A stretch of DNA of 64,000 nucleotides from Defluviicoccus sp. (GCA_028820505.1 JAPPIT010000058.1:2287-66286); one strand, 5' to 3'. Positions 13,579 through 48,443 are shown, numbered from the stretch's first letter. Made by a program: numbers and translations. Notes: generated from the sequence alone by a model not told the origin.

Positions 13579-13628
13579 CCCTTCGCGCGCGGGAAACGCT
13601 GGAGAACGCATACGCGGGGGCGGCAACC

Positions 13629-17755
<4,127 letters not shown>

Positions 17756-21717: not shown

Positions 21718-24700
21718 ATGGAACTGGCGCAGGTCACGCTCGACGACAAGTACACGCTCGAATCCGGCCGGGTGTACCTGACCGGAACCCAGGCGCTGGT
21801 CCGCCTGCCGCTGATGCAGCGGCAGCGCGACGCCGCGGCGGGGCTGAACACGGCCGGCTTCATCTCGGGCTACCGGGGCTCGCCGCTCGCCGGATACGAC
21901 ACCGCACTCTGGCGCGCCAGCGGAATCCTCAAGGAGAGCCACGTCCATTTCGAGCCCGGCCTCAACGAGGATCTGGCGGCGACCTCGGTCTGGGGCTCGC
22001 AGCAGGTCAACCTGTTCCAGGGCGGGCGCTATGACGGCGTGTTCGCGATCTGGTACGGCAAGGGGCCGGGGCTCGACCGGTCGATGGACGCGATGCGCCA
22101 CGCGAGCGCCGCCGGCACCTCGCTCCACGGCGGGGTGCTCGCGCTGGTGGGCGACGATCACGGCGCCGTCTCCTCGACCCTGCCGACCCAGTCCGAGCAC
22201 AACTTCGCGGCGCTGATGATGCCGGTCCTGCACCCGGCCTCGGTTCAGGAATATCTCGATTTCGGGCTGCTCGGCTGGGCGATGTCGCGCTATTGCGGGA
22301 CCTGGGTGGGGTTCAAGTGCCTGACCGAGACGGTCGAGAGCTCGGCCAGCGTGACCGTCGATCCCGGCCGGCTGGAGATCGTCGTCCCCGACGACGAGGA
22401 GCCGACTGACGCCTCGATCCGGCTCGGCGAGGACCGTCTCCAGATCGAGGCGCGGCTGCAGGAGGACAAGATCTATGCCGCGCTCCGCTTCGCACGCGAG
22501 AACCGGATCGACCGCACGGTCTGGGACAGCCCTGGCGCGCGCCTCGGCATCCTGACCGCGGGCAAGTCCTATCTCGACGTGCGCCAGGCGCTCGACGATC
22601 TCGGCATCGACGAGGCCGGCGCGGCCGAGTTCGGCATCCGGATCTACAAGGCCGGCATGGTCTGGCCGCTGGAGCGGCGCGGCACGCGCGCCTTCGCCGA
22701 CGGGCTGGAGGAGATCCTGGTCGTCGAGGAGAAGCGCGCGGTGATGGAGAACCAGCTCCGCGCCGAGCTTTACAACTGGAAGGAAAGCGCGCGGCCCCGG
22801 ATCGTCGGCAAGTTCGACGAGGACCGGAACTGGCTGCTGCCGGCCGCCGGCGAGCTCACCCCCGCCAGGATCGCGAGGGTTATCGCCGGGCGCATCGGGC
22901 GCTACCGCTCGAGCCCGCGAATCGCCGACCGGCTGGACGAGATCGAGGCCAAGGAGCGCGCGCTCTCCGGCTATACGCCCGGGCTCCAGCGCACCCCCTA
23001 TTTCTGCTCCGGCTGCCCGCACAACACGTCGACGAAGGTCCCGGACGGCAGCCGCGCCGAGGCGGGGATCGGCTGCCACTGGATGGCGCTGCTGATGGAC
23101 CGCTCGGCGGCGACCTACTCGCACATGGGGGGCGAGGGGGCGAACTGGATCGGGCAGGCGCCGTTCACCGACCAGAACCACGTCTTCGTCAACCTCGGCG
23201 ACGGCACCTATCACCATTCCGGCATCCTCGCGATCCGCGCCGCGGTGCTGGCCGGCGTCAACGTCACCTACAAGGTGCTCTACAACGACGCCGTCGCGAT
23301 GACCGGCGGCCAGCCTCAGACCGTCACCCCGCAGCAGATCGCGGCCCAGGTGCTGGCCGAGGGCGTCGCCAGGGTCGTCGTCGTCGCCGACCACCCCGGC
23401 AAGTACACCGGCCGGCCGCCCTTCCCCGGCGGGCTGAAGATCCACCGCCGCGACGAGCTCGACGCGCTGCAGCGTTCGCTGCGCGAGACCGAGGGCGTCA
23501 CGGTGCTGATCTACGACCAGACCTGCGCGGCCGAGCTCCGCCGGCGGCGCAAGCGCGGGACGGCCCCCGACCCGGACGTGCGCGTCTTCATCAACGAGGC
23601 GGTGTGCGAGGGGTGCGGCGACTGCTCGGTTAAGTCGAACTGCGTCTCGATCGAGCCGCTGGAGACCCGCTACGGGCGCAAGCGGCGGATCAACCAGTCC
23701 TCGTGCAACAAGGATCTCTCCTGCGTCAACGGCTTCTGCCCCAGCTTCGTGACGCTGACCGGCGCCGGCATCCGACGCGCGCGCGCCGGCGGCGACGCGC
23801 TGCCCGGCCTGCTCGCCGACCTGCCGGAACCGGACGGGCCGGACCTCGACGAGCCCTGGGACATCCTGGTGACCGGGATCGGCGGCACCGGCGTGGTGAC
23901 CATCGGCGCGATCCTCGGCATGGCGGCGCACCTGGAGAACAAGGGCGTGACGGTCCTCGACCAGTCGGGGCTCGCCCAGAAGAACGGGGCGGTCGTCAGC
24001 CACGTCCGCATCGGCGCCGCGCCGGAGGATCTGCACGCGGTCCGCATCGCGGCGGGCAAGGCGCGGCTGCTGCTCGGCTGCGACGCGGTGACGGCCGGGA
24101 GCTTCGATGCGCTGGCCAAGCTCGGCCGCGGGCGCACCCGGGCGGTGGTCAACCGCGACGTCGCGCCGACCGCGGCGTTCACCCTCGACGGCGACACGGT
24201 CTTCGACCGCGACGCGCTGTTCGGCGCGATCCGCGAGGCGGCGGGGCACAATTTGACCGAACTGGTGGATGCGACGCGGACGGCGACGGCGCTCCTCGGA
24301 GACGCCATCGCGACCAACATGTTCATGGTGGGCTATGCCGCCCAGCGCGGTCTGATCCCGGTCTCGCTCGCGGCGCTCGAACGCGCCATCGAGCTCAACG
24401 GCGTCGCGGTCGAGGCCAACAAGGAGGCGCTCGGCTGGGGCCGCGTCCAGGCCGCAAGGCCGGAGGAGGTCCGCGCCGTCCTCGACCGCGCCGGCGCGGC
24501 GCCCGACCCCGAGCCCGTCGCCGAGACGCTGGAAGAGATCATCGAGGACCGGACCGCGCTGCTCACCGCCTGGCAGGACGCGGCCTATGCGGAACGCTAC
24601 CGCGCCCTCGTCGCGCGCGCCGAGGCGGCGGACCGGGCGCTGGGCGATGTCTCGTCCGACTTCGCCTGCGCCGTCGCGCGCCATGCGGCGAAGCTGATGG

Positions 24701-25212
24701 CCTACAAGGACGAGTACGAGGTCGCCCGGCTCTATACCGACCCCGCCTTCGCGGCACGGCTGAAGGCGCAGTTCGAGGGCGATTTCAGGCTTTCGTTCCA
24801 CCTTGCCTTGCCGCTGCTGCGCCGACCCGACCCGACCACGGGCGAGCCGAGAAAGCGCAGCTTCGGGCCGTGGACGATGGCGGCGTTCCGCGTGCTCGCG
24901 CGGATGAAGCGCCTGCGCGGCGGGCCGTTCGACGTGTTCGCCCGCAGCCCGGACCGGCGTCTCGAACGGGAGCTGATCGACTGGTATTTCGCCCTCGTCG
25001 GGGAGCTCGCCGGCGGGTTGACCGAGGCGAACTACGGAACCGCGGTCGCGCTCGCGAGCCTGCCGGAGAAGATCCGGGGCTACGGGCCGGTCAAGGCGCG
25101 GAGCGTGGACGAGGCCCGGCGCAGGGAAGCCGGGTTGCGCGAGTCGTGGCCGGTCCCGCCCGCCCGCGAGGACGTGCCGGAACCGGCGGAAGAGCTCATT
25201 CCGGCCAGGTGA
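21718..25212 (+). CDS. indolepyruvate ferredoxin oxidoreductase family protein (fused alpha/beta)
   Basis: 1164 aa. N-terminal [34 protein letters not shown], a TPP-binding region and the CxxCxxC ferredoxin cluster CEGCGDC. Confidence 0.85.
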
Positions 25213-28027: not shown

Positions 28028-28915
28028 TTACCTCTCCACCCCCGCCAGCCCTTCCAGCACGCCGCAGACGCACGCCGTGTCCTCCGCGACCCGGCCCTGC
28101 GCCAGCGCCGCGTTGTAGATCTGGCCCGACGCCGCGAAGCAGGGGGCCGCGCAGCCCAGTTCGGCGAGGAAGTCGCCGATGACCTTCATGTCCTTGAGCT
28201 GCATGTCGATCGACGCCGAGGCGTCGGAATAGTCGCCCGCGACCATCTGGGGGCCGCGCACCTCGAAGATGCGCGAGGTGGCGGCGCTGTTGGAGATCAC
28301 CTCGTAGATCGTCTCCGGCGCGAGCCCCGCCTTGAGGCCGAGGGCGAAGGCTTCCCCGGCGGCGACGTTGTGGATGGCGACGAGCAGGTTGGCGACGAAC
28401 TTCATCCGGCTGCCGTTGCCGAATTCGCCGAGGTCGTACTGGGCGCGGGAGAACCCCTCGAAGACGTCGGAGAGCCCGGCGATCGCCGCCGTGTCGCCGC
28501 TCGCATAGACCACCAGGTCCCCGGTCAGCGCCTGCTTGCCGGTGCCGCTCAACGGCGTGTCGAGCAGGATTTTCCCCGTTTCGGCCAGCGTCGCCCGCCC
28601 CGCCTCCTTGACCGGGATGGGGAGCGTCGAGGTGTCGAAGGCGACGAGGCCGGGCTTCTCGGCCTCGGCGATGCCTTCGGCGCCCGTGGTCACCGCCTCG
28701 AACGCCGCGATGCTGGGCAGCGAGGTCATCACGCAATCGGCCGCCTCGGCCACCGCGCGCGGGCTGTCGGCCACCTGCCCGCCCATCGCGGCGAGCGCGT
28801 CCGCGCGGGCCGGGTCGGTGTCGCGCCCGACCACCCCGAATCCGGCCCCGATCAGGTTCTTCGCCATCGCCGAGCCCATCCGGCCCAGCCCCACGATTCC
28901 GACCGTCTTCGCCAT
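28028..28915 (-). CDS. NAD(P)-dependent beta-hydroxyacid dehydrogenase (3-hydroxyisobutyrate dehydrogenase family)
   Basis: Start MAKTVGIVGLGRMGSAMAKNL with the Rossmann GxGxxG motif, and the HIBADH-family catalytic Lys region. Confidence 0.8.
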   Translation of the reverse strand: MAKTVGIVGLGRMGSAMAKNLIGAGFGVVGRDTDPARADALAAMGGQVADSPRAVAEAADCVMTSLPSIAAFEAVTTGAEGIAEAEKPGLVAFDTSTLPIPVKEAGRATLAETGKILLDTPLSGTGKQALTGDLVVYASGDTAAIAGLSDVFEGFSRAQYDLGEFGNGSRMKFVANLLVAIHNVAAGEAFALGLKAGLAPETIYEVISNSAATSRIFEVRGPQMVAGDYSDASASIDMQLKDMKVIGDFLAELGCAAPCFAASGQIYNAALAQGRVAEDTACVCGVLEGLAGVER

Positions 28916-28991
28916 CGCCCCTCTCCCGCGCCGCGAGGCGCCCTGTGCTATAAGACCGGCGCGCACCATAGCGGCTCGGGGAAGGCGGGGC

Positions 28992-31334
28992 ATGGCAAAT
29001 CAGGGGGTGGGCGCGTCCATCGCCCGCAAGGAGGACGACCGCCTGATGCGGGGCCGCGGCCGCTTCGTCGGCGATTTCGGCCTCGCCGGACAGCTCGAGG
29101 CGGCGTTCGTCCGGAGCCCCGTCGCGCACGCCCGGATCGGGGCGATCGACATCCCGGACGACATCCGGCCGCGCGTCTTCACCCATGCCGACATGGAAGG
29201 CGTCAAGCCGATCCGCGCGGTCTCGGCGCTGCCCGGGTTCAAGCCCTCGGACCAACCGGCGCTGGCGTCGGAGAAGGTGCGCCAGGTGGGCGAGACGATC
29301 GCGGTCTGCGTGGCGGAAACCCGCGCCGAGGCCGAGGACATGGCCGACCGCGTGGCGGTCGATTTCGAGATATTGCCGGCGGTCTCCGACATGCTGGCCG
29401 CGCGCGATGCGGACGCGCCGCTGATCCACGAGCAGTGGGGCGACAACGTCTTCCTGGAGACCGATGTCAACGACGACATGGAGGCGGTCGCCGCTCGCGC
29501 TGCGGTCAAGGTCACGCGCGAGGTCCGCACCGCGCGCCAGTGCATGGCGCCGATCGAGGGCAAGGGCGTGCTCGCCGAATGGGACCCGAGGCTCCGCCAG
29601 CTCACCGTGACCTCGGCGGCGCAGCTCCCCCACATCGTCCGCAACGGGCTCGCCGAATGCCTCGGGATGGACCTCGCGAGCGTCCGGGTGATCGCGCCCG
29701 ATGTCGGGGGCGGGTTCGGCTACAAGGGGCTCCTCGCACCGGAGGAGATCTGCATCGCCTGGCTCGCCAGGCGCCTGGAGCGCCCGGTGCGGTGGCTGGA
29801 GGACCGGCGCGAGCATCTGACCGCCAACGCCAATTGCCGCGAGCACCACTACATCGTCACCGGCTACGCCGACGCCGATGGAAAGCTGCTCGGGATCGAG
29901 GCCGAGGCGACGGTCGATGCCGGCGCCTATTCGGCCTACCCGTTCTCGGCCTGCCTGGAGGCCGCCCAGGTCGCCTCGATCCTGCCCGGGCCCTACATCA
30001 TGGACGCCTTCCGCTGCCGCACCTGGTCGATCGCGTCGAACAAGCCGCCGATCCTCCCCTATCGCGGGGTGGCGCGGGCCGGCGTCTGCTTCGCGCTGGA
30101 GATCGTTATCGACGCCATCGCCCGCGAGGTCGGGCGCGAGCCGCACGAGGTCAGGCTGGAGAGCCTGGTGAAACCCGAGCAGATGCCGTTCGACAACATC
30201 ACCGCCAAGCACTACGACAGCGGCGACTACCCCGAGTGCATCCGCCGCGCGGCCGAGGCGATCAACGTCGCGGGGGTGCGCGCGCGCCAGGCGCGAGGCG
30301 AGCCGGACGGGCGGCGCGTCGGGGTCGGCTTCTCGATCTTCTGCGAGCAGGCGGGCCACGGCACGGCGGTCTATTCCGGCTGGGGGATCCCGATGATCCC
30401 GGGCTTCGAACAGGCCGGCGCGCGGCTCACGCCGGACGGCGCGTTGGAGCTCCGCGTCGGCGTCCACAGCCACGGTCAGGGGCTCGAGACCAGCCTCGCC
30501 CAGGTGGCGCACGAGGTGCTCGGCATCGATACCGACGACGTGCGCGTGGTGCTGGGCGATACCGCCTACACCCCCTACTCGACCGGCACCTGGGGGTCGC
30601 GCTGCATGATCATGGCGGGCGGCGCGACGGCGGAGGCCTGCAAGCTGCTCGCCGAGCGCATCCGGCAGATCGGCGCCGGGCTGCTCCAGGTCGAGCCCAC
30701 CTCGGTGCGGCTGGAGGACGGACGGGTCGTCAGCGCATCGGGGAGCGTGACGCTGCAGGAGGTCGGCCGCACCTGGTACCTGCGCCCGCAGGACCTCACC
30801 GCCGACGTCGACCGGCAGGGGCTGGAGACGATCGGCGGCTACAAGCCGGAGCGCGATTCCGGCACCTTCAGCTATGCCTGCCACGCCGCGATCGTCGCCG
30901 TCGACGCCGCGACCGGCGAGGTCGAGATCCTGGACTATGTGGTGGTCGAGGACGGCGGGGTGCTGGTCAACCCGATGATCGTCGACGGGCAGGTCCATGG
31001 CGGCACCGGACAGGGGATCGGCACGGCGCTCTACGAGGAGATGCCCTACGCCGAGGACGGCCAGCCGCTCGCGCCCACGCTCGCCGACTACCTGCTGCCG
31101 GGGCCGACCGAGATCCCGGCGATCCGGGTCGATCACATGGAGACCCCCTCGCCCTACACCACCTTCGGCCAGAAGGGGATCGGCGAGGGCGGCGCGATCG
31201 GACCGCCGGCGGCGATCGCCAACGCGGTCAACGACGCGCTCGCGCAGCTCGGCGTCGAGATCTCCGAGTGCCCGATCACGCCGCGCCGGCTGCTCGCCGC
31301 CATCGCCGCGGCGGCCGAGAACGGCGACCGGTGA
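28992..31334 (+). CDS. xanthine dehydrogenase family molybdopterin-binding large subunit (CoxL-like), lone
   Basis: 780 aa. N-terminal ARKEDDRLMRGRGRFVGD, plus GGGFG and other Mo-hydroxylase large-subunit motifs. No adjacent small or medium subunit genes on this strand. Confidence 0.85.
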   Translation: MANQGVGASIARKEDDRLMRGRGRFVGDFGLAGQLEAAFVRSPVAHARIGAIDIPDDIRPRVFTHADMEGVKPIRAVSALPGFKPSDQPALASEKVRQVGETIAVCVAETRAEAEDMADRVAVDFEILPAVSDMLAARDADAPLIHEQWGDNVFLETDVNDDMEAVAARAAVKVTREVRTARQCMAPIEGKGVLAEWDPRLRQLTVTSAAQLPHIVRNGLAECLGMDLASVRVIAPDVGGGFGYKGLLAPEEICIAWLARRLERPVRWLEDRREHLTANANCREHHYIVTGYADADGKLLGIEAEATVDAGAYSAYPFSACLEAAQVASILPGPYIMDAFRCRTWSIASNKPPILPYRGVARAGVCFALEIVIDAIAREVGREPHEVRLESLVKPEQMPFDNITAKHYDSGDYPECIRRAAEAINVAGVRARQARGEPDGRRVGVGFSIFCEQAGHGTAVYSGWGIPMIPGFEQAGARLTPDGALELRVGVHSHGQGLETSLAQVAHEVLGIDTDDVRVVLGDTAYTPYSTGTWGSRCMIMAGGATAEACKLLAERIRQIGAGLLQVEPTSVRLEDGRVVSASGSVTLQEVGRTWYLRPQDLTADVDRQGLETIGGYKPERDSGTFSYACHAAIVAVDAATGEVEILDYVVVEDGGVLVNPMIVDGQVHGGTGQGIGTALYEEMPYAEDGQPLAPTLADYLLPGPTEIPAIRVDHMETPSPYTTFGQKGIGEGGAIGPPAAIANAVNDALAQLGVEISECPITPRRLLAAIAAAAENGDR

Positions 31335-32275
31335 CGGCCCCGCCCCGTTCGGGCGGAGAGGTCGGGTTCGTCCTGCCCGAGCCTTCCACGACCCTTGATC
31401 TCGCGATGGACGACGGCGCGCCGATCCGCGTCGTGCGCCAGGGCAACCCGTCCGGGCCGCGTGTCGTGCTGAGCCACGGCAACGGCTTTGCGAGCGATAG
31501 CTACTTCCCGTTCTGGCGGCTCATGCTGGACCGGTTCGACCTCTGCCTGTTCGACTTCCGCAATTGCGGGCGCAACCCGTTCCACGCGGCCGAGCCGCAC
31601 GACTATCGCCGTTTCGCGCGCGACAACGTGACTGTACATCGCGCCGTCGCGGAAGAATGGGGCGCGAAGACCACGATCGGGACCTTCCATTCGATGTCGG
31701 CGATCGCCGCGCTGCTCGCGATCGTCGACGGCGTCTGGCACTGGGACGCGCTGGTGCTGTTCGACCCGCCGGTGGTCCCGCCGGAAGGCGACCCGCTGCG
31801 CGCCGAGCTGCTGACCGAGGGGGAGGCGCTGCGCGACGCCGCCCTGATCCGCAAGAATCGGTTTCCCGATCCGGAAGAGATGGCCGACGTGTTCCGCTAC
31901 CTGCACCGGTTCCGGCGGCTGCGGGAGGGGGTGCCGGAACTCAACACACGCTCGACACTGCGCTTCGATCCGGCTTCGGGCGAGTGGCTGCTCGCCTGTC
32001 CCGGCCCTGTGGAAGCCAATCTGTATGTCGAGGTCGGGGAACTGCCGATCTGGCGGAAGCCCGGCGGTCCGGCGCGCCCGCTCCTGATCGTCGGCGCCGA
32101 CCCGGAACCCGCGGACGCGCCGAAGACGGCGCCTTGTTGCAGACTGTACTGCGAAACCTTCGAAATCGACTATGCCTGCGTGCCCGATACCAGCCACCTG
32201 TTGCAGCTCGAAGAGCCCGAGCTGTGCTTCGCCCTGTTCGAGGATTTCCTGAGCCGGAACGGGATCGCCGCATGA
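31331..32275 (+). CDS. alpha/beta-hydrolase fold protein, tandem paralog 1
   Basis: GTG start overlaps the CoxL stop (GTGA). HGNGF oxyanion motif and an atypical nucleophile elbow TFHSMSA. Its N-terminus aligns with paralog 2 (MTAPP versus MNAPP). Confidence 0.7.
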   Translation: MTAPPRSGGEVGFVLPEPSTTLDLAMDDGAPIRVVRQGNPSGPRVVLSHGNGFASDSYFPFWRLMLDRFDLCLFDFRNCGRNPFHAAEPHDYRRFARDNVTVHRAVAEEWGAKTTIGTFHSMSAIAALLAIVDGVWHWDALVLFDPPVVPPEGDPLRAELLTEGEALRDAALIRKNRFPDPEEMADVFRYLHRFRRLREGVPELNTRSTLRFDPASGEWLLACPGPVEANLYVEVGELPIWRKPGGPARPLLIVGADPEPADAPKTAPCCRLYCETFEIDYACVPDTSHLLQLEEPELCFALFEDFLSRNGIAA

Positions 32276-33198
32276 ACGCGCCGCCGGACATTTTCCGCGT
32301 CCCGGAGCCTCTGGAGAGCTTCGATGCCGAGATGGAGGACGGCGCCGTCATCCGGGTGCGGCGCCACGGCAACCCGGACGGGCCCAGGCTGGTGATGGCG
32401 CACGGCAACGGATTCGCGATCGACGCCTATTACCCGTTCTGGCGGCTGCTCACGGACCGCTACGACCTCGCGATCTACGACCAGCGCAATCACGGCCGCA
32501 ACCCGCGCCACGACGTGGACCGCCACGACGTTCCCACCTTCGTCGCCGACATGGACCGGTTGGTCGACCTCATCCCGGAGCGTTTCGGCGCCAGGCCAAC
32601 GGTCGGCGCGTTCCATTCGATCTCGGCGGTGACCGCGGTCCGGCACGCGCTGGAACGCGGCTGGAAGTGGGATGCACTCGCGCTGTTCGACCCGCCGCTG
32701 ATCCCCTCGCCCGGCCACCGGGCGCACGAGGTGGCACGGACGTTCGAGCTCGGTCTCGCGGACTGGGCGGCGGCGCGGCCGGACCGGTTCTCCGACGCGA
32801 TGGAGCTCGCCGTCCGCTTCGCGCGCTCGAAGAGCCTCGCGCGCTGGGTCGAGGGCGGGCACGCGCTGATGGCGCGCTCGATCACCCGCGAGGACCCGGC
32901 AACCGGAGAATTCGTGCTGTGCTGCCCGCGCGAGGGAGAGTCGCGGGTCTACCGCACCAACGCGGGGCTCGACCTCTGCCCGCGCCTCGGCGAGCTGAAG
33001 GGGCCGCTCACCTTCATCTCGTCCGACCCCGACGCGCCGGGCGCGCTGGCGCCGGGCAAGGTCGGCCGCGCGATGAAGGAAGACCACGGCATCGAATGGA
33101 CACCGATCGGAAACACCAGCCACCTGCTCCAGATCGAACGCCCCGACGCCTGCCACGCGGCGCTGGAGACCTTCCTCGCGAGGCAGGACCTCGGTTAA
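32272..33198 (+). CDS. alpha/beta-hydrolase fold protein, tandem paralog 2
   Basis: ATGA overlap with paralog 1. HGNGF, elbow AFHSISA, Asp 24 residues after the Ser, and a C-terminal NTSHLLQ His. Confidence 0.7.
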   Translation: MNAPPDIFRVPEPLESFDAEMEDGAVIRVRRHGNPDGPRLVMAHGNGFAIDAYYPFWRLLTDRYDLAIYDQRNHGRNPRHDVDRHDVPTFVADMDRLVDLIPERFGARPTVGAFHSISAVTAVRHALERGWKWDALALFDPPLIPSPGHRAHEVARTFELGLADWAAARPDRFSDAMELAVRFARSKSLARWVEGGHALMARSITREDPATGEFVLCCPREGESRVYRTNAGLDLCPRLGELKGPLTFISSDPDAPGALAPGKVGRAMKEDHGIEWTPIGNTSHLLQIERPDACHAALETFLARQDLG

Positions 33199-33301: not shown

Positions 33302-34339
33302 TCAACGGCCCTCGACGCGCATGTCGGCCGGCACGATGCGGCCGCCGTCCACGATCGTCTCGCCGTCGAGTGTGAGCGTGCAGCCCTTGAGCGGGATGTC
33401 GATATGGCACAGCGTGTCGTTGTCCCCGCCGACCTCGGTATTGGGGCCGGTCGAGAATAGGACGTTGCCGTAGAACGCGCGGCCGTCCTGGCCGGTCGAG
33501 TCCGCCGCCGCCGGGTCGGTGCCCATGAAATCCCAGCGCGCCCTCGGGTCGAGCCCCCAGCCGATATGGGAAACCGAGTAGGCGCGCGGGTCGTCATAGC
33601 CCGCCATGAAGCTCCTGAGCAGCGCCGCGTCGAGCCCCTCGCCGCCGATGTCGGTGATCATGCCGCTCTCGATGGTGAGCGTGATCGGATCGGTGACGTA
33701 GCGCATCGTGGGCAACAGCAGCTGATCGCCGGTGTCGATCACCACCGTCCCGTCGACGCCGTCCTCCACCGCCGCGGTGTAGAGGAACACGCCCGGCCAG
33801 TGGTCCCACCGGCCCGGCTTGTCGGTGTAGCCGTACTGCTCGCCGATCCGGTAGCCGCCGAAACGGTAGGTCACGTCGGTGCCGCCCGGCGAGGTAATGC
33901 GCATCTCCTTCGCCTTGGCCAGCCTGGCCGAGCCGGCCTCTATCCGGCGCCGGTCGTCCGGATTCGACACCATCCGCTTGAGCACGTCGATCGGCTCGAT
34001 GACGAGCAGCATGCGCGGACCGGCGTCGGTGATCTCGGTCTGCTCCCTCGACCACAGCAGGCCGACCAGGTCCACCACCATGTCGACGCTCTTGAGCGCG
34101 GCCTTGGCCGGCTCGTTGCCCTGGAGCGAATTGCCCGGGCCGAAGAAGCTTCCGGGCTTCTTCCTGATGTTGACCTGGAACGCGTCCGCTTCGAGCTCTG
34201 CCGCGGCGGCGAGGAACGCCGCCGCATGCTCGGCCCGGACATCGTCCTCCGAAAGCACGGCGAGGCTGGTCCCCGCCCCCACATCGCAAAGCTCGAGCTG
34301 TTTCCTGAACAACGCGACCGTTTCGGCATTCGCAGCCAT
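33302..34339 (-). CDS. aminopeptidase-T (M29)-fold protein, candidate 2,5-dihydroxypyridine 5,6-dioxygenase (NicX/Hpo-like)
   Basis: 345 aa from MAANAE. His258 and His312-x-Asp314 (CHIDIPLKG) are spaced like the H265/H318/D320 iron ligands I recall for NicX. Last gene of the coxLSM-Rieske operon. Confidence 0.55.
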   Translation of the reverse strand: MAANAETVALFRKQLELCDVGAGTSLAVLSEDDVRAEHAAAFLAAAAELEADAFQVNIRKKPGSFFGPGNSLQGNEPAKAALKSVDMVVDLVGLLWSREQTEITDAGPRMLLVIEPIDVLKRMVSNPDDRRRIEAGSARLAKAKEMRITSPGGTDVTYRFGGYRIGEQYGYTDKPGRWDHWPGVFLYTAAVEDGVDGTVVIDTGDQLLLPTMRYVTDPITLTIESGMITDIGGEGLDAALLRSFMAGYDDPRAYSVSHIGWGLDPRARWDFMGTDPAAADSTGQDGRAFYGNVLFSTGPNTEVGGDNDTLCHIDIPLKGCTLTLDGETIVDGGRIVPADMRVEGR

Positions 34340-34424
34340 CGTTCCCTCCGCCTTCTGCCGCCCGTCCCGGGCGCTTTCCGGAAACGCTATCACCCGCTGT
34401 TCCGGGCGGCAAGGAAAGCGCGCC

Positions 34425-34895
34425 TCAGACCGGCTTGGCGAGGAGCGTCGGGATCGAGAACGTGTCGAGCACGACGACGCGCTCGACGAATTTGAGGGCG
34501 CCGCCGAAGAACCCCATCGTGTCGCGGTAGCAGCCGATCGCGAACAGGCGCGAGACGCCCTCCACGTCGGTCTGGTAGAGCGCGTAATTCGTCTCCGCTT
34601 CGATCCGTTCGCCTGGATCGGCGGCTATCCGGGGCGGGCCGGTGATGTGGCGCGTGGTGTGCGGGTTGAACGTGTTGGCCCTGAGCAACGAGACGATCCG
34701 GTCGCTCAGCGCCTTCTTGGTCTCGCACAGCATCACGCTGCCCGGCAGGCCCTGCTGGACGTTCTCCAGCGGCACGATGCGATAGGCGCATTCGTCGTGG
34801 AACAGGTCGAGCCAGGCCTGCCAGTCCTCGTTGTCGAGGGCGGCGGAGGACTCGGCGATCAGGGCTTCGACCCGCGCCCGGAGCTCGATGTCCAC
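34425..34895 (-). CDS. aromatic-ring-hydroxylating dioxygenase beta subunit (SnoaL-like fold)
   Basis: 156 aa. NEDWQAWLDLFHDECAYRIVP, typical of small subunits. Sits 4 nt after the alpha subunit stop. Confidence 0.75.
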   Translation of the reverse strand: MDIELRARVEALIAESSAALDNEDWQAWLDLFHDECAYRIVPLENVQQGLPGSVMLCETKKALSDRIVSLLRANTFNPHTTRHITGPPRIAADPGERIEAETNYALYQTDVEGVSRLFAIGCYRDTMGFFGGALKFVERVVVLDTFSIPTLLAKPV

Positions 34896-34899
34896 CTGC

Positions 34900-36159
34900 T
34901 CAGCCCTCGTTGGGGTCGAGGCCCATGATGTCGCAATAGTGGGACCAGAAGCCGCGGATCATCACGTCGTCGAGCTTTTCGTCGCCGTCGCGGATCGGCC
35001 CGCGCCCGCCCATCTCGACCACGGAGACGTCGCTGCCGCCGGCGCGGTGGCCCGACTGGCAGGATTCGAGCGCCTCCGCGTCCTCCAGCGAGACATAGCC
35101 GGCGGGTCCCGCCATGTTGGCCTGGCGCAGGCGATGGGCGGTCATCGCCTCGCTGTCGTCCTCATAGCCGAAGATCGTGAAGACGAGGTCGAACGCGCCG
35201 GGTCCCCTGGGCCGGATCTGGCGGGCGGCGAGCGCGTTCCGGATCTGCTGGAAGGTGCTGTTGGGGAAGATCGAGCACATGGTGGTCGACCGGTCGTCCT
35301 CGAACTCGCGCTCGAAGCGGAGCAGCGCCGGGTCCTGCAGCGCGAGCCGCGATCCCTCCGCGGCTTCGGCAAGAGGCCGCGGCGGGCCGGGATCGGCGGC
35401 GGGCGGCGGCGCGGTTTCGTACTCCTCGGGCGGCTGCCGGACGAAGAGCAGGCTGTGGCGCCGCTTCGGATCCATCCGCGAGCCGCAATCGTGGGTCGAC
35501 CGGTTGATCCCGAAGGTGCTCTGGAAACCGTGCAGCAGCGCGCCGTGGTAATGGTCGCGCACGTTCTCCAGATAGGCCTTCCAGTTGCTGCGCACCGACT
35601 GGCGCTGGTAGCCGAGAATCCGGATCGGCGCGCGGAACAGGCGCTCCAGGTGGGCGACATGGGTCGGGCCGAGATAGTCGCGCAGCGGCTCGACGGTCTC
35701 CGAGAAGGTGGCGAAGAGGACGCCGTTCACCCCGTCCACGCGAAGCTTCCGCAGCCCGTGGCAGGCCATGTCGAAATCGTCGGGCATACCCGGGCTGCCG
35801 CCGACGCCGTGGCGGTGGGGAATCGCGACCAGATCGCCCGTCAGGTCGTAGGTCCAGCTGTGATAGAGGCAGACATGGGCCGAGACGTTGCCGAAATTCT
35901 CGCGCTGGATCAGCGCGCCGCGATGCGAGCAGCGGTTGACGAAGGCATGGACCCGCCCGTCTCCGGCGCGGTTGAAGACGATCGGCGCCTCGCCCACGAA
36001 GGTTCGGCGGAAATCGCCCGCGTCGGGGATCTCGGCTTCGAGCCCGATGAACGACCAGGCCTCGCCCTCGAAGATGCGCTCGATTTCCAGCCGGTAGAGC
36101 GCCTCGTCGTGGTACCAGGCGTAGGGAATGCGGTCGAAGGCGGCGCCGGGACGTTCCAT
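34900..36159 (-). CDS. Rieske non-haem-iron oxygenase alpha subunit
   Basis: Rieske motif CSHRG...CLYHSW and a mononuclear iron motif DHYHGALLH. Start taken at MERPGAAF. An upstream in-frame Met at 36216 is possible. Confidence 0.8.
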   Translation of the reverse strand: MERPGAAFDRIPYAWYHDEALYRLEIERIFEGEAWSFIGLEAEIPDAGDFRRTFVGEAPIVFNRAGDGRVHAFVNRCSHRGALIQRENFGNVSAHVCLYHSWTYDLTGDLVAIPHRHGVGGSPGMPDDFDMACHGLRKLRVDGVNGVLFATFSETVEPLRDYLGPTHVAHLERLFRAPIRILGYQRQSVRSNWKAYLENVRDHYHGALLHGFQSTFGINRSTHDCGSRMDPKRRHSLLFVRQPPEEYETAPPPAADPGPPRPLAEAAEGSRLALQDPALLRFEREFEDDRSTTMCSIFPNSTFQQIRNALAARQIRPRGPGAFDLVFTIFGYEDDSEAMTAHRLRQANMAGPAGYVSLEDAEALESCQSGHRAGGSDVSVVEMGGRGPIRDGDEKLDDVMIRGFWSHYCDIMGLDPNEG

Positions 36160-36235: not shown

Positions 36236-37033
36236 TCAAAGACATTCTGCTACCGCGTCCTCGGTCAGCACCCCGATCAGGTGCGCACGGTAGGCGGCGC
36301 TGCCATGCAGGTCGTCGGTGAGGCCGTCCGCCGGGACCGAGAGCCCGGCGAGCGAGTCCGCGCTGAACGAGCCGGCGAGCGCCCGCTCGAACGGCTCCAC
36401 GCGGAACACGCAGGGACCCGCGCCGGTGACCGCGACCCGGACAGTGCGGTCGGCGAAGCGGGCTAGGAAGACGCCGACGATGGAAAACCGCGATGCCGGG
36501 TTGGGAAACTTGCGGTAGCTCGCGGCGGCGGGGATCGGGAACCGCACCTCGACGATCAGCTCGCCGGGCTCCAGCGCGGTCTGGAACATGCCCAGGAAGA
36601 AATCGCCGGCCGCGACGCGGCGACGGGTGGTGACGACCTCCGCGTCGAGCGCGAGCACGGCCGACGGGTAGCAGGCGGCGGGGTCATTGTTGGCGAGCGA
36701 GCCCCCGATGGTGCCCCGGTTGCGCACCAGCGGATCGCCGATCCCACCGGCGAGATTGCCGAGCGCCGGGATGACCTCCCTCACCGTTTCCGAGGCGGCC
36801 ACCGCCGCGTGCCGCGTCATCGCCCCGATGGTGAGCACGCCGGGTTCGGCGGAAACGCCCGCCAGGTCGCCGAGCGCGGCGAGGTCGACCAGGTCGGACG
36901 GCGCCGCCAGACGGTGCTTCATCACCGGAATCAGGCTCATCCCGCCGGCCAGCGGGCGCGCCTCCTCATCCGACGCAAGCAGACTCTCTGCCTCGGCAAC
37001 CGTGCCCGGCCGGTGATAGCGGTAGGGGTACAT
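36236..37033 (-). CDS. Mo-hydroxylase FAD-binding medium subunit (CoxM-like)
   Basis: MYPYRYHRPGTVAEA start, and FAD-binding PCMH motifs AGGMSLIP and GTIGGSLANNDP. The ATG overlaps the CoxS stop by 1 nt. Confidence 0.8.
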   Translation of the reverse strand: MYPYRYHRPGTVAEAESLLASDEEARPLAGGMSLIPVMKHRLAAPSDLVDLAALGDLAGVSAEPGVLTIGAMTRHAAVAASETVREVIPALGNLAGGIGDPLVRNRGTIGGSLANNDPAACYPSAVLALDAEVVTTRRRVAAGDFFLGMFQTALEPGELIVEVRFPIPAAASYRKFPNPASRFSIVGVFLARFADRTVRVAVTGAGPCVFRVEPFERALAGSFSADSLAGLSVPADGLTDDLHGSAAYRAHLIGVLTEDAVAECL

Positions 37034-37503
37034 CAGCCCTCCGCCATCGCCCCGGCGCCGGCGAGGATTGCGGCGACGATGTTGCGGTAGCCCGTGCAGC
37101 GGCAGAGATTGCCCTCCAGCCCGGCGCGGACTGAGGCTTCGTCCGCCGCCTCGCCGCGCCGGATCATATCGAGCGCGCTCATGATCATGCCTGGCGTGCA
37201 GAACCCGCATTGCAGCGCGTGATGTTCCTTGAAGGCGGCCTGGAGCGGGCTGAGCCCCTCTTCCGGCGAGACGCCCTCGATGGTGGTAACGGCATGGCCC
37301 ACGGCCTGGGCGGCGAAGACGGTGCATGACTTCACCGCGATGCCGTCGAGATGGACCGTGCAGGCGCCGCACTGGCTGGTATCGCAGCCGACATGGGTGC
37401 CGGTGAGCCCGGCCCGGCGGCGGATGAATTCGACCAGCAGCATCCTCGGGTCGATCTCCGCCCGGTGCTCGCGGCCGTTGATGTCGAGGGTGACGGGAAT
37501 CAT
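37033..37503 (-). CDS. Mo-hydroxylase (2Fe-2S)-binding small subunit (CoxS-like)
   Basis: MIPVTLDINGREH start, a plant-type ferredoxin CGACTV cluster and a second cluster CGFCTPG...CRCTGY. Starts 1 nt after the CoxL stop. Confidence 0.85.
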   Translation of the reverse strand: MIPVTLDINGREHRAEIDPRMLLVEFIRRRAGLTGTHVGCDTSQCGACTVHLDGIAVKSCTVFAAQAVGHAVTTIEGVSPEEGLSPLQAAFKEHHALQCGFCTPGMIMSALDMIRRGEAADEASVRAGLEGNLCRCTGYRNIVAAILAGAGAMAEG

Positions 37504-39917
37504 CCGGTCCCGGCCTTTTCGAGCGCCTGCCACACCGCGTCGGGCGTATAGGGCTGGGGCACGTGGCGCACGCCGAGGTCCCAGAGCGCATCGACGATCG
37601 CGTTGCCGATCGCCGCCGGCGCGCCGATCGTGCCGGTCTCGCTGCCGCCCTTGACGCCGAGCGGGTTGGACGGCGCCGGCGTCTCCTGAAAGGTCATACC
37701 GACGACCCCGGGCATGTCGGAGGCGCGGGGCAGGGCATAGTCCATCAGCGTTCCGGAGAAGAGCTGTCCCGCGCCGCCGCCGTCATAGACCACGCGCTCC
37801 ATCAGCGCCTGTCCGAGCCCCTGGGCGAGCCCGCCGACGACCTGCCCCTCGACGATCAGCGGGTTGACGATGTTGCCGCAATCGTCGGCGGTGAAGTAGT
37901 CGCGCACCGTCACCCTGCCCGACCGCAGCTCGACGACGACCACGGCAAGATGCATCGCCTGCGGGTCGTTGGTGTCGGGCGGCTCGTAGAACACGGTTTC
38001 CTCGAGCCCCGGCTCCATCGAGCCGTCGGTGGGCAGCACCGCGGCGTGGTAGGCGGCGTCGGCCACGTCCTCGAAGCTCAGCCGACGGTCGGTGCCGCGG
38101 ACCGAGAAGACGGAACCCTCGTAAACCAGATCCTCCTCGGCGCATTCGAGCATGTGCGCGGCGAGCCGCCTGGCCTTGTCGATCACCCTGTCGGCCGCCT
38201 TCATGATCGCGACCCCGCCGACCGAGAGCGAGCGCGACCCCCAGGTGCCGTTGCCGAACGGGACGCTGCCGGTATCGCCCTCGACCAGCGCGATGTCCTC
38301 GATGGGGAGGCCGAGACGATCGGCGGCGATCTGGCAGAAGGTGGTGTCGTGACCCTGGCCGTGGCTGTGGGAGCCGACGAAGACGGTCGCCTTGCCGTCG
38401 GAATGGACGCGGACGATGGCGCTCTCGTAGCCGCCATGCAGCCCGCCGCGGCTGGCCAGGTTGCGGCTCGACCCGGTGCCCGACTTGTCGAGGAAGCAGG
38501 CGATGCCGATGCCCATCCGGACGCCCCCTTCCCGGAGCTCCTCTTGCTCGGCCCGCAGCCCGTCGTAATCGGCGATCTCCAGCAGCTTGTCGAACAGCGC
38601 CGGCGGATCGCCGCAATCGTAGGGGCGCCCGACCGGCGTGGTGTAGGGGAAGGCCTCCGCCGGGATCAGATTGCGGCGCCGGATCTCGGCCACGTCGATG
38701 CCGAGCTCGCGCGCGCCGTTTTCCAGCAGCCGCTCGTTGACGAAGGTGGCCTCGGGCCGCCCGGAGCCGCGATAGGCGTCGATGGGAACGGTGTTGGTGT
38801 AGGCCCCGCGCACGCGCAGACGCAGGTTGGGTGTGGTGTAGAGCCCGGTGACGGTCTGCGGGTAGGAATTGCCCGGGATGCTCGGCGCGAAGTTGGAGAG
38901 ATAGGCGCCGAGCGCGGCGATAGTGTCGATCTCTAGCGCGAGGATCCGGCCGTCCCCGTCGAAGGCCATGCGCGCCCTGGTGTGGTGGTCGCGCGCCTGC
39001 GCGTCCGACATCAGCGCCTCCGCCCGGGTCGAGGTCCACTTGACCGGGCGCTTCAGCAGCATCGAGGCCCACACCACCGTCGAGACCTCGACCGCGAAAT
39101 GGCATTTCAGCCCGAACCCGCCGCCGACGTCGGGCGAGATCACCCGTAGCTTGTGCTCGGGTACGTGGAGCGCGTACTTGGCGAGCCAGCGTTTGAGATA
39201 GTGGGGCGTCTGGCTGGTCGCCCAGAGCGTGATGTCGCCGGTCGCCTCGTCGAACTCGGACAGGTAGGCGCGGGGTTCCAGCGGGCTGCCGGCGACACGG
39301 TGGGTATCGAGCGTCAGCGAGACCGTGCGATGCGCCGCCGCGAACGCGGCTTCCGTCGCCGCGCGGTCGCCGCGCTCGATCTCGAAGATCAGGTTGGAGC
39401 CGAACCGCTCGTGCAGCACGGGCGCGTCCTCGTCCAGGCTGCGCGCGATGTCGGTGACCGCGGGCAGGGGTTCATAGTCGACCGCGACCGCCTCGGCGCC
39501 GTCGAGCGCGGCATAGCGGTCGTCCGCGACCACCGCGGCCACCACGTCGCCCACGTGATGCACCTTGCCGGCGGCGAGCGCCGGGCGCAGCACCTCGTTC
39601 ATCGGCCGCCCGTCGGAGAACGGCATCGGGTGAACGCATGTGAGCTCGCCGAGCCCGGCCGCCTTCCAGTCCTCGGCGGTCAGCACCCTCAGCACGCCCG
39701 GCAGCGCCGCCGCCGCGCTCGGATCGACCCCGTTTATGCGGGCATGGGCGTGGGGCGAGCGGACGAAGGCGACATGGGCAGTCCCGGCCGGCTCGATATC
39801 GTCGACGAACCGCCCGCGCCCCTTGAGGAACTTGTCGTCCTCGCGGCGCCTCAGCCTTTGTCCGACATACACGTCCCTGTCCCCGTATCGCCGGATCAAT
39901 AACGGGCAGGCTCGCAT
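37500..39917 (-). CDS. Mo-hydroxylase molybdopterin-binding large subunit (CoxL-like), first gene of coxLSM-type operon
   Basis: 805 aa. RRREDDKFLKGRGRFVDD N-terminus, GGGFG, and C-terminal GVKGGSETGTIGAPAAIGNAIVDAL. Confidence 0.85.
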   Translation of the reverse strand: MRACPLLIRRYGDRDVYVGQRLRRREDDKFLKGRGRFVDDIEPAGTAHVAFVRSPHAHARINGVDPSAAAALPGVLRVLTAEDWKAAGLGELTCVHPMPFSDGRPMNEVLRPALAAGKVHHVGDVVAAVVADDRYAALDGAEAVAVDYEPLPAVTDIARSLDEDAPVLHERFGSNLIFEIERGDRAATEAAFAAAHRTVSLTLDTHRVAGSPLEPRAYLSEFDEATGDITLWATSQTPHYLKRWLAKYALHVPEHKLRVISPDVGGGFGLKCHFAVEVSTVVWASMLLKRPVKWTSTRAEALMSDAQARDHHTRARMAFDGDGRILALEIDTIAALGAYLSNFAPSIPGNSYPQTVTGLYTTPNLRLRVRGAYTNTVPIDAYRGSGRPEATFVNERLLENGARELGIDVAEIRRRNLIPAEAFPYTTPVGRPYDCGDPPALFDKLLEIADYDGLRAEQEELREGGVRMGIGIACFLDKSGTGSSRNLASRGGLHGGYESAIVRVHSDGKATVFVGSHSHGQGHDTTFCQIAADRLGLPIEDIALVEGDTGSVPFGNGTWGSRSLSVGGVAIMKAADRVIDKARRLAAHMLECAEEDLVYEGSVFSVRGTDRRLSFEDVADAAYHAAVLPTDGSMEPGLEETVFYEPPDTNDPQAMHLAVVVVELRSGRVTVRDYFTADDCGNIVNPLIVEGQVVGGLAQGLGQALMERVVYDGGGAGQLFSGTLMDYALPRASDMPGVVGMTFQETPAPSNPLGVKGGSETGTIGAPAAIGNAIVDALWDLGVRHVPQPYTPDAVWQALEKAGTG

Positions 39918-39989: not shown

Positions 39990-40103
39990 ATGGGCGAACT
40001 GTTTGTCATCCTCGGTTTCATGGTGGTGGGCGGAATCGTCGCCTTCATCTGCGCCGAGATCGAGTGGCGGCTCGCGGGGAAACCGCGAATGACCGACCGG
40101 TAG
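39990..40103 (+). CDS. candidate 37-aa single-TM small protein
   Basis: ATG preceded by ggaaaggag at -12 to -4. MGELFVILGFMVVGGIVAFICAEIEWRLAGKPRMTDR has one hydrophobic helix. No homology assessed. Confidence 0.3.
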   Translation: MGELFVILGFMVVGGIVAFICAEIEWRLAGKPRMTDR

Positions 40104-40122: not shown

Positions 40123-40614
40123 TCACCCCAGCCGCGTCGACCGTTCTTCGTGCCCGGCCCATTTGGGCAGGGCGTCGTCGATGTCGAGCACCCGCGCGCC
40201 ATAGAAGATGTGGCAGCGGGGCCTGAACGCTTCCGGAACGGACGGCGGATCGCCGAAATCGAACAAGGAAGGGAAGGCGAGCCACATCCGCCTCCCCTCG
40301 TCCGCGATCGGGGTGCCGCAACGCCCGCAATCGATCCTGCAGGGCAGAATACGGTCGGGCGCGTCCGTCTCGCTGTTGTAGAAGCGGAGCAGGTCGAGCC
40401 CGGCGGTCAGGCGCACGTCGCGCTTGCGGAAAATCGCCGCCCACTGCATCGGCGCGCCGTGCCGATGCTGACAATGAACGCAATGGCAGATCTTCGCGGC
40501 GACCGGATCGGCGGAGACCTCGTAGCGGACGGCGCCGCATTTGCACCGTGCCCGGTACTTGGCGTGGAACCGGGCGTCGTCCGGGCGCATGTAGAGCCGC
40601 GCGAAGTCGTCCAT
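40123..40614 (-). CDS. GFA family protein (glutathione-dependent formaldehyde-activating / CENP-V-like zinc domain)
   Basis: Cys motifs CKCGAV...CHCVHCQ...CRIDCGRCG. Confidence 0.7.
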   Translation of the reverse strand: MDDFARLYMRPDDARFHAKYRARCKCGAVRYEVSADPVAAKICHCVHCQHRHGAPMQWAAIFRKRDVRLTAGLDLLRFYNSETDAPDRILPCRIDCGRCGTPIADEGRRMWLAFPSLFDFGDPPSVPEAFRPRCHIFYGARVLDIDDALPKWAGHEERSTRLG

Positions 40615-44306: not shown

Positions 44307-45635
44307 TCAGGAGCCGCGCAGGGCTTGGAGCCGCGCGGCCGGAATCCCGCCGGCCCAGCCCGACCGGGCCCTTCGGTCGAGCTGCTTGGCGATCCACGCA
44401 TCCTGCCACGCGCCGGCGGGGGCGACGACGTCGATGCTGACGAGGTGGTCGTAGCGGGCCGCGCATCCGTCCACCGGCAGGGGGGTCCCGCCGTCGAGCG
44501 CCTCCGTCAGCATTTTTCGCGCGGCTATGATCGCCATGTCGGTGTAGGCGAGGTTCTCCAGGCTGCGGTCCTGGATCGGCCCCTGCCCTTCCAGGATCAT
44601 CGTGTCGTGAATATTGAAGTCGTAGCCGACGCCGGCATAGGTGCCGGTCAGTTGTTCGCCGGCGGAGAAGCCGTAGCGGTTTTCCATGTTGCGCCGGGGC
44701 GCGTAGCCCGGCACCTCGTAGGTCTTGAGCTTCTCCGCCCGCAACGCCTCGCCGTCGATGGGCTGGCGGTAGTCGTAGAAGATGTCGTAGCGCCAGTTGC
44801 TGAAATCGTCGATCGGCACGTGGATCTGCACCAGCGTCCAGTCGCCGATCGCCACCACGGCGGTGTGCGGGAACAGGTAGTTGGTCACCCGCGCATAGGT
44901 GAAGTCGCGCCAGTCGCGGAGCGCGAAGATCCTGATCCCGAAGTCGGTGCGCGCGATCTCGAGTCGCGGGTTGGGCACCTCGCGCAGGATGGTGGTGACG
45001 GCAACGTCGGAATCGTCAGCGGCGGCCAGGAACTGCTTGAAGCCGTAGGTTCCGTCTCCTTCGGCATCGTCGTCGAGATAGCGGTGCAGGTAGGAGAGAT
45101 GCGCGGGATCGATCTCGCCCTCGACCGCCTGCAGCCAGTTGGCCCGCTGTAAGGCCTTGAACACGAAGCAGTGGCTCGCCGGTGCGTCGTACCAGTCGAA
45201 GCCCGGCAGCGGCGGCGCCGCGCCGTCGCCCATATAGCCGTAGACGATGCCGTTGCGCTCGACGCAGGGATAGGCGGGCTGGCGGACGCGCTCGTGATAG
45301 GTCGAACCGGCCGGCTCGGCGGGCTGTTCCAGACAACGCCCGTCATAGGCGTAGAGCCAGCCGTGATAGGGGCAGCGCAGCCCGCCGTCCTCGCAGCGCC
45401 CGAAAGCGAGGTCGCCGGCGCGATGGGCGCAGCGCCGGGCGAGCGCCCCGTAACGGCCCCTGTCGTCGCGGAAGACGACCAGATCCTCGCCGAGGACGCG
45501 GATTTCCCTGACCGGGCGGTCGTCGGGAAATTCCTCGACCAGCGCGAAGGGCTGCCAGTAGCGACGCATGATCGCGCCCATCGGCGTACCGGGGCCGGTA
45601 TGTGTCAGGCTTTCGTTCTGTTCCACGCTCAACAT
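44307..45635 (-). CDS. Rieske (2Fe-2S) oxygenase alpha subunit, phthalate-family type
   Basis: CAHRAGDL...CPYHGW Rieske motif. Single-subunit style with no beta subunit nearby. A downstream MarR regulator is encoded immediately upstream on the same strand. The true start may be MGAIMRRYW at 45581. Confidence 0.75.
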   Translation of the reverse strand: MLSVEQNESLTHTGPGTPMGAIMRRYWQPFALVEEFPDDRPVREIRVLGEDLVVFRDDRGRYGALARRCAHRAGDLAFGRCEDGGLRCPYHGWLYAYDGRCLEQPAEPAGSTYHERVRQPAYPCVERNGIVYGYMGDGAAPPLPGFDWYDAPASHCFVFKALQRANWLQAVEGEIDPAHLSYLHRYLDDDAEGDGTYGFKQFLAAADDSDVAVTTILREVPNPRLEIARTDFGIRIFALRDWRDFTYARVTNYLFPHTAVVAIGDWTLVQIHVPIDDFSNWRYDIFYDYRQPIDGEALRAEKLKTYEVPGYAPRRNMENRYGFSAGEQLTGTYAGVGYDFNIHDTMILEGQGPIQDRSLENLAYTDMAIIAARKMLTEALDGGTPLPVDGCAARYDHLVSIDVVAPAGAWQDAWIAKQLDRRARSGWAGGIPAARLQALRGS

Positions 45636-45680
45636 GGCGCGATGCTAACCCGCGCCCGCTTCCGGTCAAACGGGGAAGGG

Positions 45681-46175: not shown

Positions 46176-46286
46176 GTTGACATATATGCAGCCCGCTGAT
46201 ACGCCCGGCAAGCAAAACAGGCATGGAAATCGGCTCGAATGCGGCGCGGAACCCGGCGGCGGGCGGGCGTCGGGCGGCGGTGGGAA

Positions 46287-48441: not shown

Positions 48442-48443
48442 CC

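Follow-up and report, generated by a model that had tools for sequence, protein, structure and literature searches.

Does the last gene of a hydroxylase operon in a Defluviicoccus genome encode a peptidase, as the NCBI name leucyl aminopeptidase given to several of its homologues implies, or an oxygenase that opens a heteroaromatic ring? The question arises at positions 33302..34339, on the minus strand, of a 64,000-nucleotide stretch of DNA from Defluviicoccus sp. (GCA_028820505.1, JAPPIT010000058.1:2287-66286), which was analysed at its full length and is referred to here as the window. The 345-residue product, whose sole PDB match is NicX, is assigned to the NicX family of Fe(II) ring-cleavage dioxygenases (Pfam PF26233). 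The initial annotation had described it as an M29 aminopeptidase-fold protein with NicX-like spacing of its His and His-x-Asp residues and as a putative 2,5-dihydroxypyridine (2,5-DHP) dioxygenase, encoded by the terminal gene of a molybdenum (Mo) hydroxylase and Rieske oxygenase operon.

The open reading frame (ORF) on the minus strand spans 33302..34393 and would give 363 residues from a GTG codon, and an internal ATG at 34339 gives 345. This ATG is preceded, at a distance of 5 nt, by the sequence GGAGG; the lengths of full-length homologues range over about 338-353 residues (mostly 343-346), and public gene calls for an identical protein also give 345 residues. Because the GGAGG, homologue lengths, and public calls agree, the ATG start at 34339 and the coordinates 33302-34339 are taken as correct. 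The product contains four histidines in all (38, 180, 258, and 312). Translation confirmed H258 (within AYSVSHIGWGL) and H312-I-D314 (within NDTLCHIDIPL) at a distance of 54 residues, as the initial annotation had read them. The spacing of 53 that it had given for the NicX ligands is also right, as counted between H265 and H318 on the PDB alignment, with the ligand identities taken from the literature (PMC7910607).

A phmmer search against all PDB chains matched one protein, NicX (7CN3, 7CNT, and 7CUP), even at E <= 10. The match had an E-value of 3.6e-80 and aligned residues 3-339 of the query to residues 4-346 of the NicX chain, and blastp gave 42.8% identity between the two proteins. Since the whole protein aligns at this E-value and NicX stands alone in the PDB, the resemblance is far beyond chance. 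In NicX, Fe(II) is bound by H265, S302, H318, and D320, as the crystal structure shows, and mutagenesis found each of the four to be essential (PMC7910607). Both the PDB alignment and MAFFT alignments place these residues on H258, S296, H312, and D314, the predicted Fe ligands of the Defluviicoccus protein. The initial annotation had thus picked out three of the ligands correctly (H258, H312, and D314), and the alignment went beyond it by placing S296, which it had not mentioned, on the fourth ligand, S302. The four ligand columns are kept in at least 119 of 121 sequences, comprising the query and its 120 closest homologues. L104, H189, R293, and E308 of NicX are conserved as well, and the predicted pocket residues are L95, W96, Q168, H180, R287, and E302. 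The published family motif is HX52HXD (PMC3831237); the spacing here is HX53HXD, the loop that separates the ligands having a single-residue indel. Comparison with pathway-annotated homologues gave 47% identity to NdpE and 45% to PicD of a Paracoccus pic cluster, in line with the proposed relationship.

Local Pfam-A and NCBIfam scans of the 345-residue protein gave no match (Pfam E <= 0.01), whereas an identical public protein (GCA_028819635.1, contig JAPPLA010000046.1) carries a precomputed match to PF26233, "NicX". PF26233 is evidently newer than the local Pfam copy, so the family was assigned from the PDB search and from precomputed labels. These labels include "2,5-dihydroxypyridine 5,6-dioxygenase", given by JGI to many homologues. 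Sequence comparison and structural modelling together support placing the product of 33302-34339 in the NicX family, a group of non-haem dioxygenases with a mononuclear Fe(II) site and the fold of M29 aminopeptidases. PF26233 and the JGI label already cover the family, whose fold, ligands, and reaction are published, so that the assignment itself holds no novelty.

The predicted structure bears directly on the peptidase question. An AlphaFold2 model built with 28 homologues has a mean predicted local distance difference test score (pLDDT) of 92.9 and a predicted template modelling score (pTM) of 0.89. In Foldseek, this model superposes on the NicX crystal structures 7CUP and 7CN3 with a template modelling (TM) score of 0.94 and a root mean square deviation of 2.1 Å. 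The next matches are the M29 aminopeptidases PepS (4ICQ), AmpS (1ZJC), and AmpT (2AYI), which share the fold class at TM about 0.6, with 12-13% identity and E about 1e-13; beyond NicX and these aminopeptidases, Foldseek found nothing at E <= 0.001. The M29 fold named in the initial annotation is therefore borne out by the second tier of matches, and these matches, together with the NCBI names of several homologues, are what could speak for an M29-type metallo-aminopeptidase. Such a peptidase is scarcely credible when set against the higher NicX score, the NicX set of His/Ser/His/Asp oxygenase ligands, the failure of any Pfam-A peptidase model to match at E <= 0.01, and the operon partners of the gene, which are oxygenases and hydroxylases. 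The NCBI name is a systematic misannotation of NicX-type ring-cleavage dioxygenases. It is applied to the family consistently, even inside an annotated pic-type cluster (locus L087, 5641-6672, in the numbering of the related loci compared here).

The operon partners belong to a catabolic island of 11 genes at about 28.0-40.6 kb. In the direction of transcription, the minus strand carries genes for a GFA-family protein, a Mo-cofactor large subunit (MoL1), a [2Fe-2S] subunit, a flavin adenine dinucleotide (FAD) subunit, the Rieske alpha and beta subunits, and finally the NicX-like protein. The genes from MoL1 to the NicX-like gene lie on the same strand with overlaps of 4 or 1 nt or gaps of 4-85 nt, and the next gene is convergent, an operon-like arrangement in which the NicX-like gene is terminal, as had been proposed. 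On the convergent plus strand, an orphan second Mo large subunit (MoL2) is followed by two paralogous alpha/beta hydrolases, and a beta-hydroxyacid dehydrogenase gene is divergent from MoL2.

If the protein is a ring-cleavage dioxygenase, which ring does it open? The most likely reaction, by homology with NicX, is that of a 2,5-dihydroxypyridine dioxygenase, converting 2,5-DHP to N-formylmaleamate (NFM), and we hold this with fair confidence. NicX contacts its substrate through H105, E177 (two hydrogen bonds, to N1 and O1), and H189; the E177A mutant keeps 2.7% of activity, H189A 6.9%, H105F and H105M about 7-11%, and H105A none. Several results weigh against 2,5-DHP as the substrate. Two of the three contact residues differ, H105 being replaced by W96 and E177 by Q168, and only H189 is retained, as H180. 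In NicX itself, the E177A change leaves 2.7% of activity and H105F about 7%. Glu occupies position 177 in all placed references, namely NicX (pocket H-E-H), NdpE and Paracoccus PicD (both F-E-H), and Hpo-like fragments. Neither a characterised member of the clade with the W-Q pocket nor activity data for it was found, nor was a characterised enzyme with Gln at NicX position 177. No homologue of PicC, of a NicC/HspB-type monooxygenase, of maleamate amidase, or of maleate isomerase is present in the 64 kb, and within the cluster there is no ferredoxin or reductase gene for the Rieske enzyme. The two hydrolases are marginal to known NFM deformylases; the match of hydrolase B to NdpF reaches E 4e-4 in blastp and 0.007 in tblastn. 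An attempt to read the function of the hydrolases from their context elsewhere was rejected, the neighbours there being unrelated (thiolase/PhyH; peptidase/sulfatase). With two of the three contacts changed relative to NicX, and with the usual downstream genes nowhere in the window, the precise substrate is unproven.

The pocket types divide the homologues clearly. Among the 120 closest homologues and the query, 97 sequences, the query included, have the pocket W-Q-(H/A/N/S) and 24, counted with references, have F-E-H, so that Trp is paired with Gln, and Phe with Glu, almost without exception. In a neighbour-joining tree, all W-Q sequences form one clade, and the NicX, NdpE, PicD, and Hpo-like references fall outside it. 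For Hpo itself, pocket residues could be compared only through primer-derived peptides, the exact protein being absent among the 120 homologues, 80 loci, and 150 representatives; the Hpo-like fragments have Glu and His at positions 177 and 189.

This pattern could mean that the enzyme keeps the fold and Fe(II) cleavage chemistry but acts on another heteroaromatic diol with adjacent C(OH) and C(N) atoms, not on free 2,5-DHP. One candidate would be 3,6-dihydroxypicolinate, whose direct cleavage would yield N-oxalylmaleamate without PicC; others would be 2,3,6-trihydroxypyridine and a bicyclic analogue such as 7,8-dihydroxykynurenate. The two unusual hydrolases would then process a non-formyl N-acyl product. 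Besides the replaced contacts and the coherent clade outside the characterised enzymes, the suggestion draws on the lack of PicC or a NicC-type enzyme in the window, on hydrolases that are not orthologues of the NicD/Nfo type, and on the presence of two Mo large subunits. A carboxylated substrate would accord with a neutral Gln near N1/C6 where NicX has an anionic Glu, and in one close relative (87% identity, locus L007) the gene follows tryptophan 2,3-dioxygenase and kynureninase genes. Position 105, however, is Phe in the pathway homologues NdpE and Paracoccus PicD, so this residue is not strictly defining. When the superfamily is reduced to 50%-identity representatives (1604 clusters at E <= 1e-3), Gln is the commonest residue at position 177, which argues against a special adaptation, and a Gln amide would be no worse than Glu at pairing with the lactam N-H/C=O of 2,5-DHP. 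The kynurenine adjacency was seen once only. The nearest relatives outside Defluviicoccus (61-66% identity; Lichenifustis, Ancylobacter, and several MAGs, or metagenome-assembled genomes) have a W-Q-A pocket and adjoin homologues of NFM deformylase, of the NdpF type (42-46%), and of maleamate amidase, of the isochorismatase type (35-38%). This maleamate-pathway association is present in the sister loci L011, L014, L017, L019, L020, and L022. As Gln is commonest superfamily-wide and the W-Q-A sisters stand in an ordinary maleamate context, the pocket difference should not be over-read. A different diol is an unlikely substrate, though one that deserves some weight. The more specific proposal, that W-Q-H enzymes directly cleave a substituted or fused pyridinediol such as 3,6-dihydroxypicolinate in a decarboxylase-independent route, with one Fe-S/FAD set serving two Mo large subunits and a new hydrolase pair for non-formyl N-acyl products, has a slightly smaller chance still. 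2,5-DHP remains the likeliest substrate, because sister W-Q genes adjoin deformylase and amidase homologues.

The probable role of the cluster is the degradation of a pyridine carboxylate such as picolinate or nicotinate. In a first step, a Mo hydroxylase would introduce a 2-oxo group beside the ring nitrogen. Picolinate is favoured as the starting compound because MoL2 resembles PicA; nicotinate or a dicarboxylate is also possible. The carboxylate-type Rieske oxygenase would then add the para hydroxyl, possibly by ipso attack with loss of CO2. Among relatives in this Rieske subgroup, the anthranilate and salicylate 1-hydroxylase enzymes decarboxylate their substrates in this manner. The NicX-like enzyme, with O2, would open the resulting 5-hydroxy-2-pyridone between C5 and C6, that is, between the hydroxyl-bearing carbon and the carbon beside the ring nitrogen, and an adjacent alpha/beta hydrolase would remove the N-acyl group (N-formyl in the 2,5-DHP route).

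The hydrolases are candidates for this last step. Hydrolase A (31331..32275, plus strand; 314 residues as called publicly; Abhydrolase_6) and hydrolase B (32272..33198, plus strand, convergent with the NicX-like gene; 308 residues; Abhydrolase_6 and Hydrolase_4) are 41% identical paralogues whose genes overlap by 4 nt. Both have the nucleophile motif FHS[MI]S, and their Ser, Asp (DPP motif), and His are in register with the NdpF/PicE triad. Hydrolase B, for which no close PDB relative was found, is an unproven candidate for the NFM deformylase. The hydrolase family is large and uncharacterised, and the tandem pair also occurs elsewhere, for example in L089 (8093-9927), where any NicX gene is lacking; the pair may work as a unit. 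A tblastn search of the 64 kb with PicC, PicE, PicF, PicG, NdpF, NdpG, NdpH, NdpD, an HpaB-type hydroxylase, and a flavin reductase gave no match at E <= 0.01 except that between NdpF and hydrolase B, and the Amidohydro_2 domain of PicC was found in none of the window ORFs scanned.

The Rieske oxygenase is encoded immediately upstream. Its small (beta) subunit (34425..34895, minus strand; 156 residues; Ring_hydroxyl_B and SnoaL_4) has AndAd as its best NCBIfam model, at 125 bits against a cutoff of 230. The large (alpha) subunit (34900..36159, minus strand, with the ORF extending to 36216; 419 residues as called publicly; Rieske and Ring_hydroxyl_A) matches the AndAc model best, at 418 bits against a cutoff of 750, and AndAc-annotated plasmid genes match it at about 44%. 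Its best PDB matches are 7vju, terephthalate 1,2-dioxygenase 7q04, and salicylate 5-hydroxylase 7c8z, all at about 1e-92. By these matches, the alpha subunit is placed in the aromatic-carboxylate subgroup.

Three genes for a Mo hydroxylase precede the Rieske pair on the minus strand: the CoxM-like FAD-binding medium subunit (36236..37033; 265 residues; FAD_binding_5 and CO_deh_flav_C), the CoxS-like [2Fe-2S] small subunit (37033..37503; 156 residues; Fer2/Fer2_2 and NCBIfam small-subunit models), and MoL1 (37500..39872; 790 residues as called publicly; Ald_Xan_dh_C, MoCoBD_1, and MoCoBD_2). The best PDB matches of MoL1 are CoxL (8uem and 1ffu) and quinoline 2-oxidoreductase (1t3q). MoL1 carries the motif AYRGSGR, in the CoxL literature a form-II motif, whereas true CO dehydrogenases have AYXCSFR; a true CO dehydrogenase was therefore rejected. 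MoL2 (28992..31334, plus strand; 780 residues), recognised by Pfam and similar to the PicA large subunit, lies 6 kb from MoL1 and is about 35% identical to it. It is 55% identical over 766 residues to the Mo subunit encoded in the pic cluster of Paracoccus seriniphilus; for MoL1 this figure is 35.5%. No genes for small or medium subunits accompany MoL2, which presumably shares the Fe-S and FAD subunits of the MoL1 operon.

At the two ends of the island stand a GFA-family (Zn, CENP-V/GFA) protein gene upstream of MoL1 (40123..40614, minus strand; Pfam GFA), copies of which (80-93% identical) occupy the same place in L001-L009, and a beta-hydroxyacid dehydrogenase gene (28028..28969, minus strand; NAD_binding_2/11). 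The latter belongs to the 3-hydroxyisobutyrate/tartronate-semialdehyde reductase family, and all its NCBIfam matches fall below cutoff. A 37-codon ORF at 39990-40103 on the plus strand, between the GFA gene and MoL1, is called likewise in L081, L083, and L091 and has no Pfam match. A promoter and terminator scan of 27.9-40.8 kb gave nothing above the shuffled expectation.

Is the association of the NicX-like gene with these hydroxylases maintained in other genomes? The whole arrangement recurs in nine related MAG loci, with proteins 64-97% identical to those of the window; in one of the nine, the frameshifted L091, several genes are split or truncated. Complete MAG chromosomes that contain the cluster include OZ220750.1, OZ219866.1, OY763326.1, and CBDDOM010000002.1. 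The NicX-like gene of L094 is still accompanied by MoL2, the hydrolase pair, and the dehydrogenase, and an outer-membrane protein gene upstream replaces the MoL1/Rieske operon. The Mo hydroxylase HpdA alone makes 2,5-DHP from 3-hydroxypyridine (10.1101/2020.01.08.898148), and a comparable route would fit this reduced module. Trios of Mo hydroxylase, Rieske oxygenase, and NicX-like genes also occur in Binatia, in one Burkholderiaceae MAG, and in other Alphaproteobacteria, with Rieske and Mo proteins that are not orthologous to those described here. In L007 (7700-11032), the hydroxylase cluster is absent and the NicX-like gene stands after the tryptophan 2,3-dioxygenase (kynA) and kynureninase (kynU) genes, where a kynurenine formamidase might be expected. 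This locus and the loss of the upstream operon in L094 could be taken to mean that the gene product is a hydrolase, for example a formamidase, or that its clustering with hydroxylases is incidental. However, the kynA-kynU-nicX-like order is unique among about 95 loci and includes a 237-bp gap, linkage to MoL2, the hydrolase pair, and the dehydrogenase is kept even in L094, the trios recur in distant lineages, and the complete O2-activating ligand set is retained. Either suggestion is thus very improbable. A general link to the tryptophan pathway was likewise rejected, as no other locus shows it and the window has neither kynA nor kynU.

Many loci also carry a second, divergent NicX-family paralogue (33-43% identical to the first copy) a few kilobases away (L034-L049 of Binatia, at about 13.1-14.2 kb; L010, 582-1607). 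In these loci, a VanA/Ring_hydroxyl_A-type Rieske gene lies directly upstream of the first copy.

The window as a whole covers the replication-origin region of the chromosome of an alphaproteobacterium related to Defluviicoccus, with 69.6% guanine and cytosine (GC), dnaA, dnaN, and gyrB at 10847-17226 on the plus strand, and otherwise housekeeping genes. The catabolic island sits among core genes, and its GC content at third codon positions equals that of its flanks. The molybdenum-cofactor biosynthesis genes moaE and mobB, at 47968-48675 and 49957-50484 on the minus strand, lie 8-10 kb from the Mo hydroxylases. A separate small aromatic-catabolic unit at 44307-46451, also on the minus strand, comprises a LigXa-type Rieske oxygenase (442 residues) beside a MarR-family regulator. 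Near the island, 21718-25212 on the plus strand encodes a 1164-residue protein resembling indolepyruvate/2-oxoacid:ferredoxin oxidoreductases (TPP_enzyme_C, POR, and DUF6537). A literature search on pyridine catabolism in Defluviicoccus found nothing.

The protein adds an unsurprising member to a family already known and does not define a novel type of system; the value of its recognition lies in correcting the leucyl aminopeptidase label carried by a family of ring-cleavage oxygenases. The finding also suggests that wastewater bacteria related to Defluviicoccus break down pyridine carboxylates, and such catabolism could matter for how treatment plants remove N-heterocycles. Modestly new are the uncharacterised W-Q pocket clade and the Defluviicoccus variant of the cluster, in which a single Fe-S/FAD set accompanies two Mo large subunits, the hydrolases are atypical, and PicC, NicF, and MaiA are absent from the vicinity. 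Together they form a reasonable enzymological target for the substrate choice of NicX-type enzymes.

Compared with known systems, the closest structural counterpart is NicX of Pseudomonas putida KT2440, the 2,5-dihydroxypyridine 5,6-dioxygenase (EC 1.13.11.9). The two proteins have in common the fold, the His/Ser/His/Asp ligands, and the residues L104, H189, R293, and E308 (NicX numbering). They differ at H105 (W here), E177 (Q here), and C76 (G here), in the ligand spacing (HX53HXD here, HX52HXD in NicX), and in their neighbours, which are NicC, NicD, NicF, and NicE for NicX and Mo hydroxylases, a Rieske oxygenase, and atypical hydrolases for the Defluviicoccus gene.

In gene content, the island resembles the pic cluster: both combine a Mo hydroxylase with an adjacent Rieske oxygenase of two subunits and a dioxygenase of the NicX type. 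In Alcaligenes faecalis JQ135, PicB is the 6-hydroxypicolinate 3-monooxygenase, a Rieske enzyme of the aromatic-carboxylate type (10.1101/530550). Identities to the complete pic copy on the Paracoccus seriniphilus plasmid p420573 are 55% for MoL2, 45% for the dioxygenase, 41% for the Rieske alpha subunit, and 27% for the beta subunit; the alpha subunit is no closer to this pair than to the AndAc-annotated plasmid genes (about 44%). The Defluviicoccus cluster is without the PicC decarboxylase, PicE-type deformylase, PicF amidase, PicG isomerase, and SRPBCC-fused Fe-S subunit of pic. Its pic-like large subunit is the orphan MoL2 on the opposite strand, the small and medium subunit genes being found only in the MoL1 operon, and its dioxygenase has the pocket W-Q-H where Paracoccus PicD has F-E-H.

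The third comparison is with the 2,5-DHP dioxygenases that belong to nicotine pathways. NdpE, from the annotated ndpHFEGD maleamate cluster on the Sphingobium fuliginis plasmid p1, is 47% identical to the Defluviicoccus protein. Around genes of the NdpE/Hpo/VppE type lie those for a deformylase, an amidase, and an isomerase; a flavin monooxygenase supplies the substrate, and the pocket is F-E-H. In Hpo of P. putida S16, the His...His-x-Asp residues H257, H310, and D312 are essential (PMC3831237), and the motif GxNDTxCH[LI]D, judged from the published primers for Hpo, is common to that enzyme and the protein described here.

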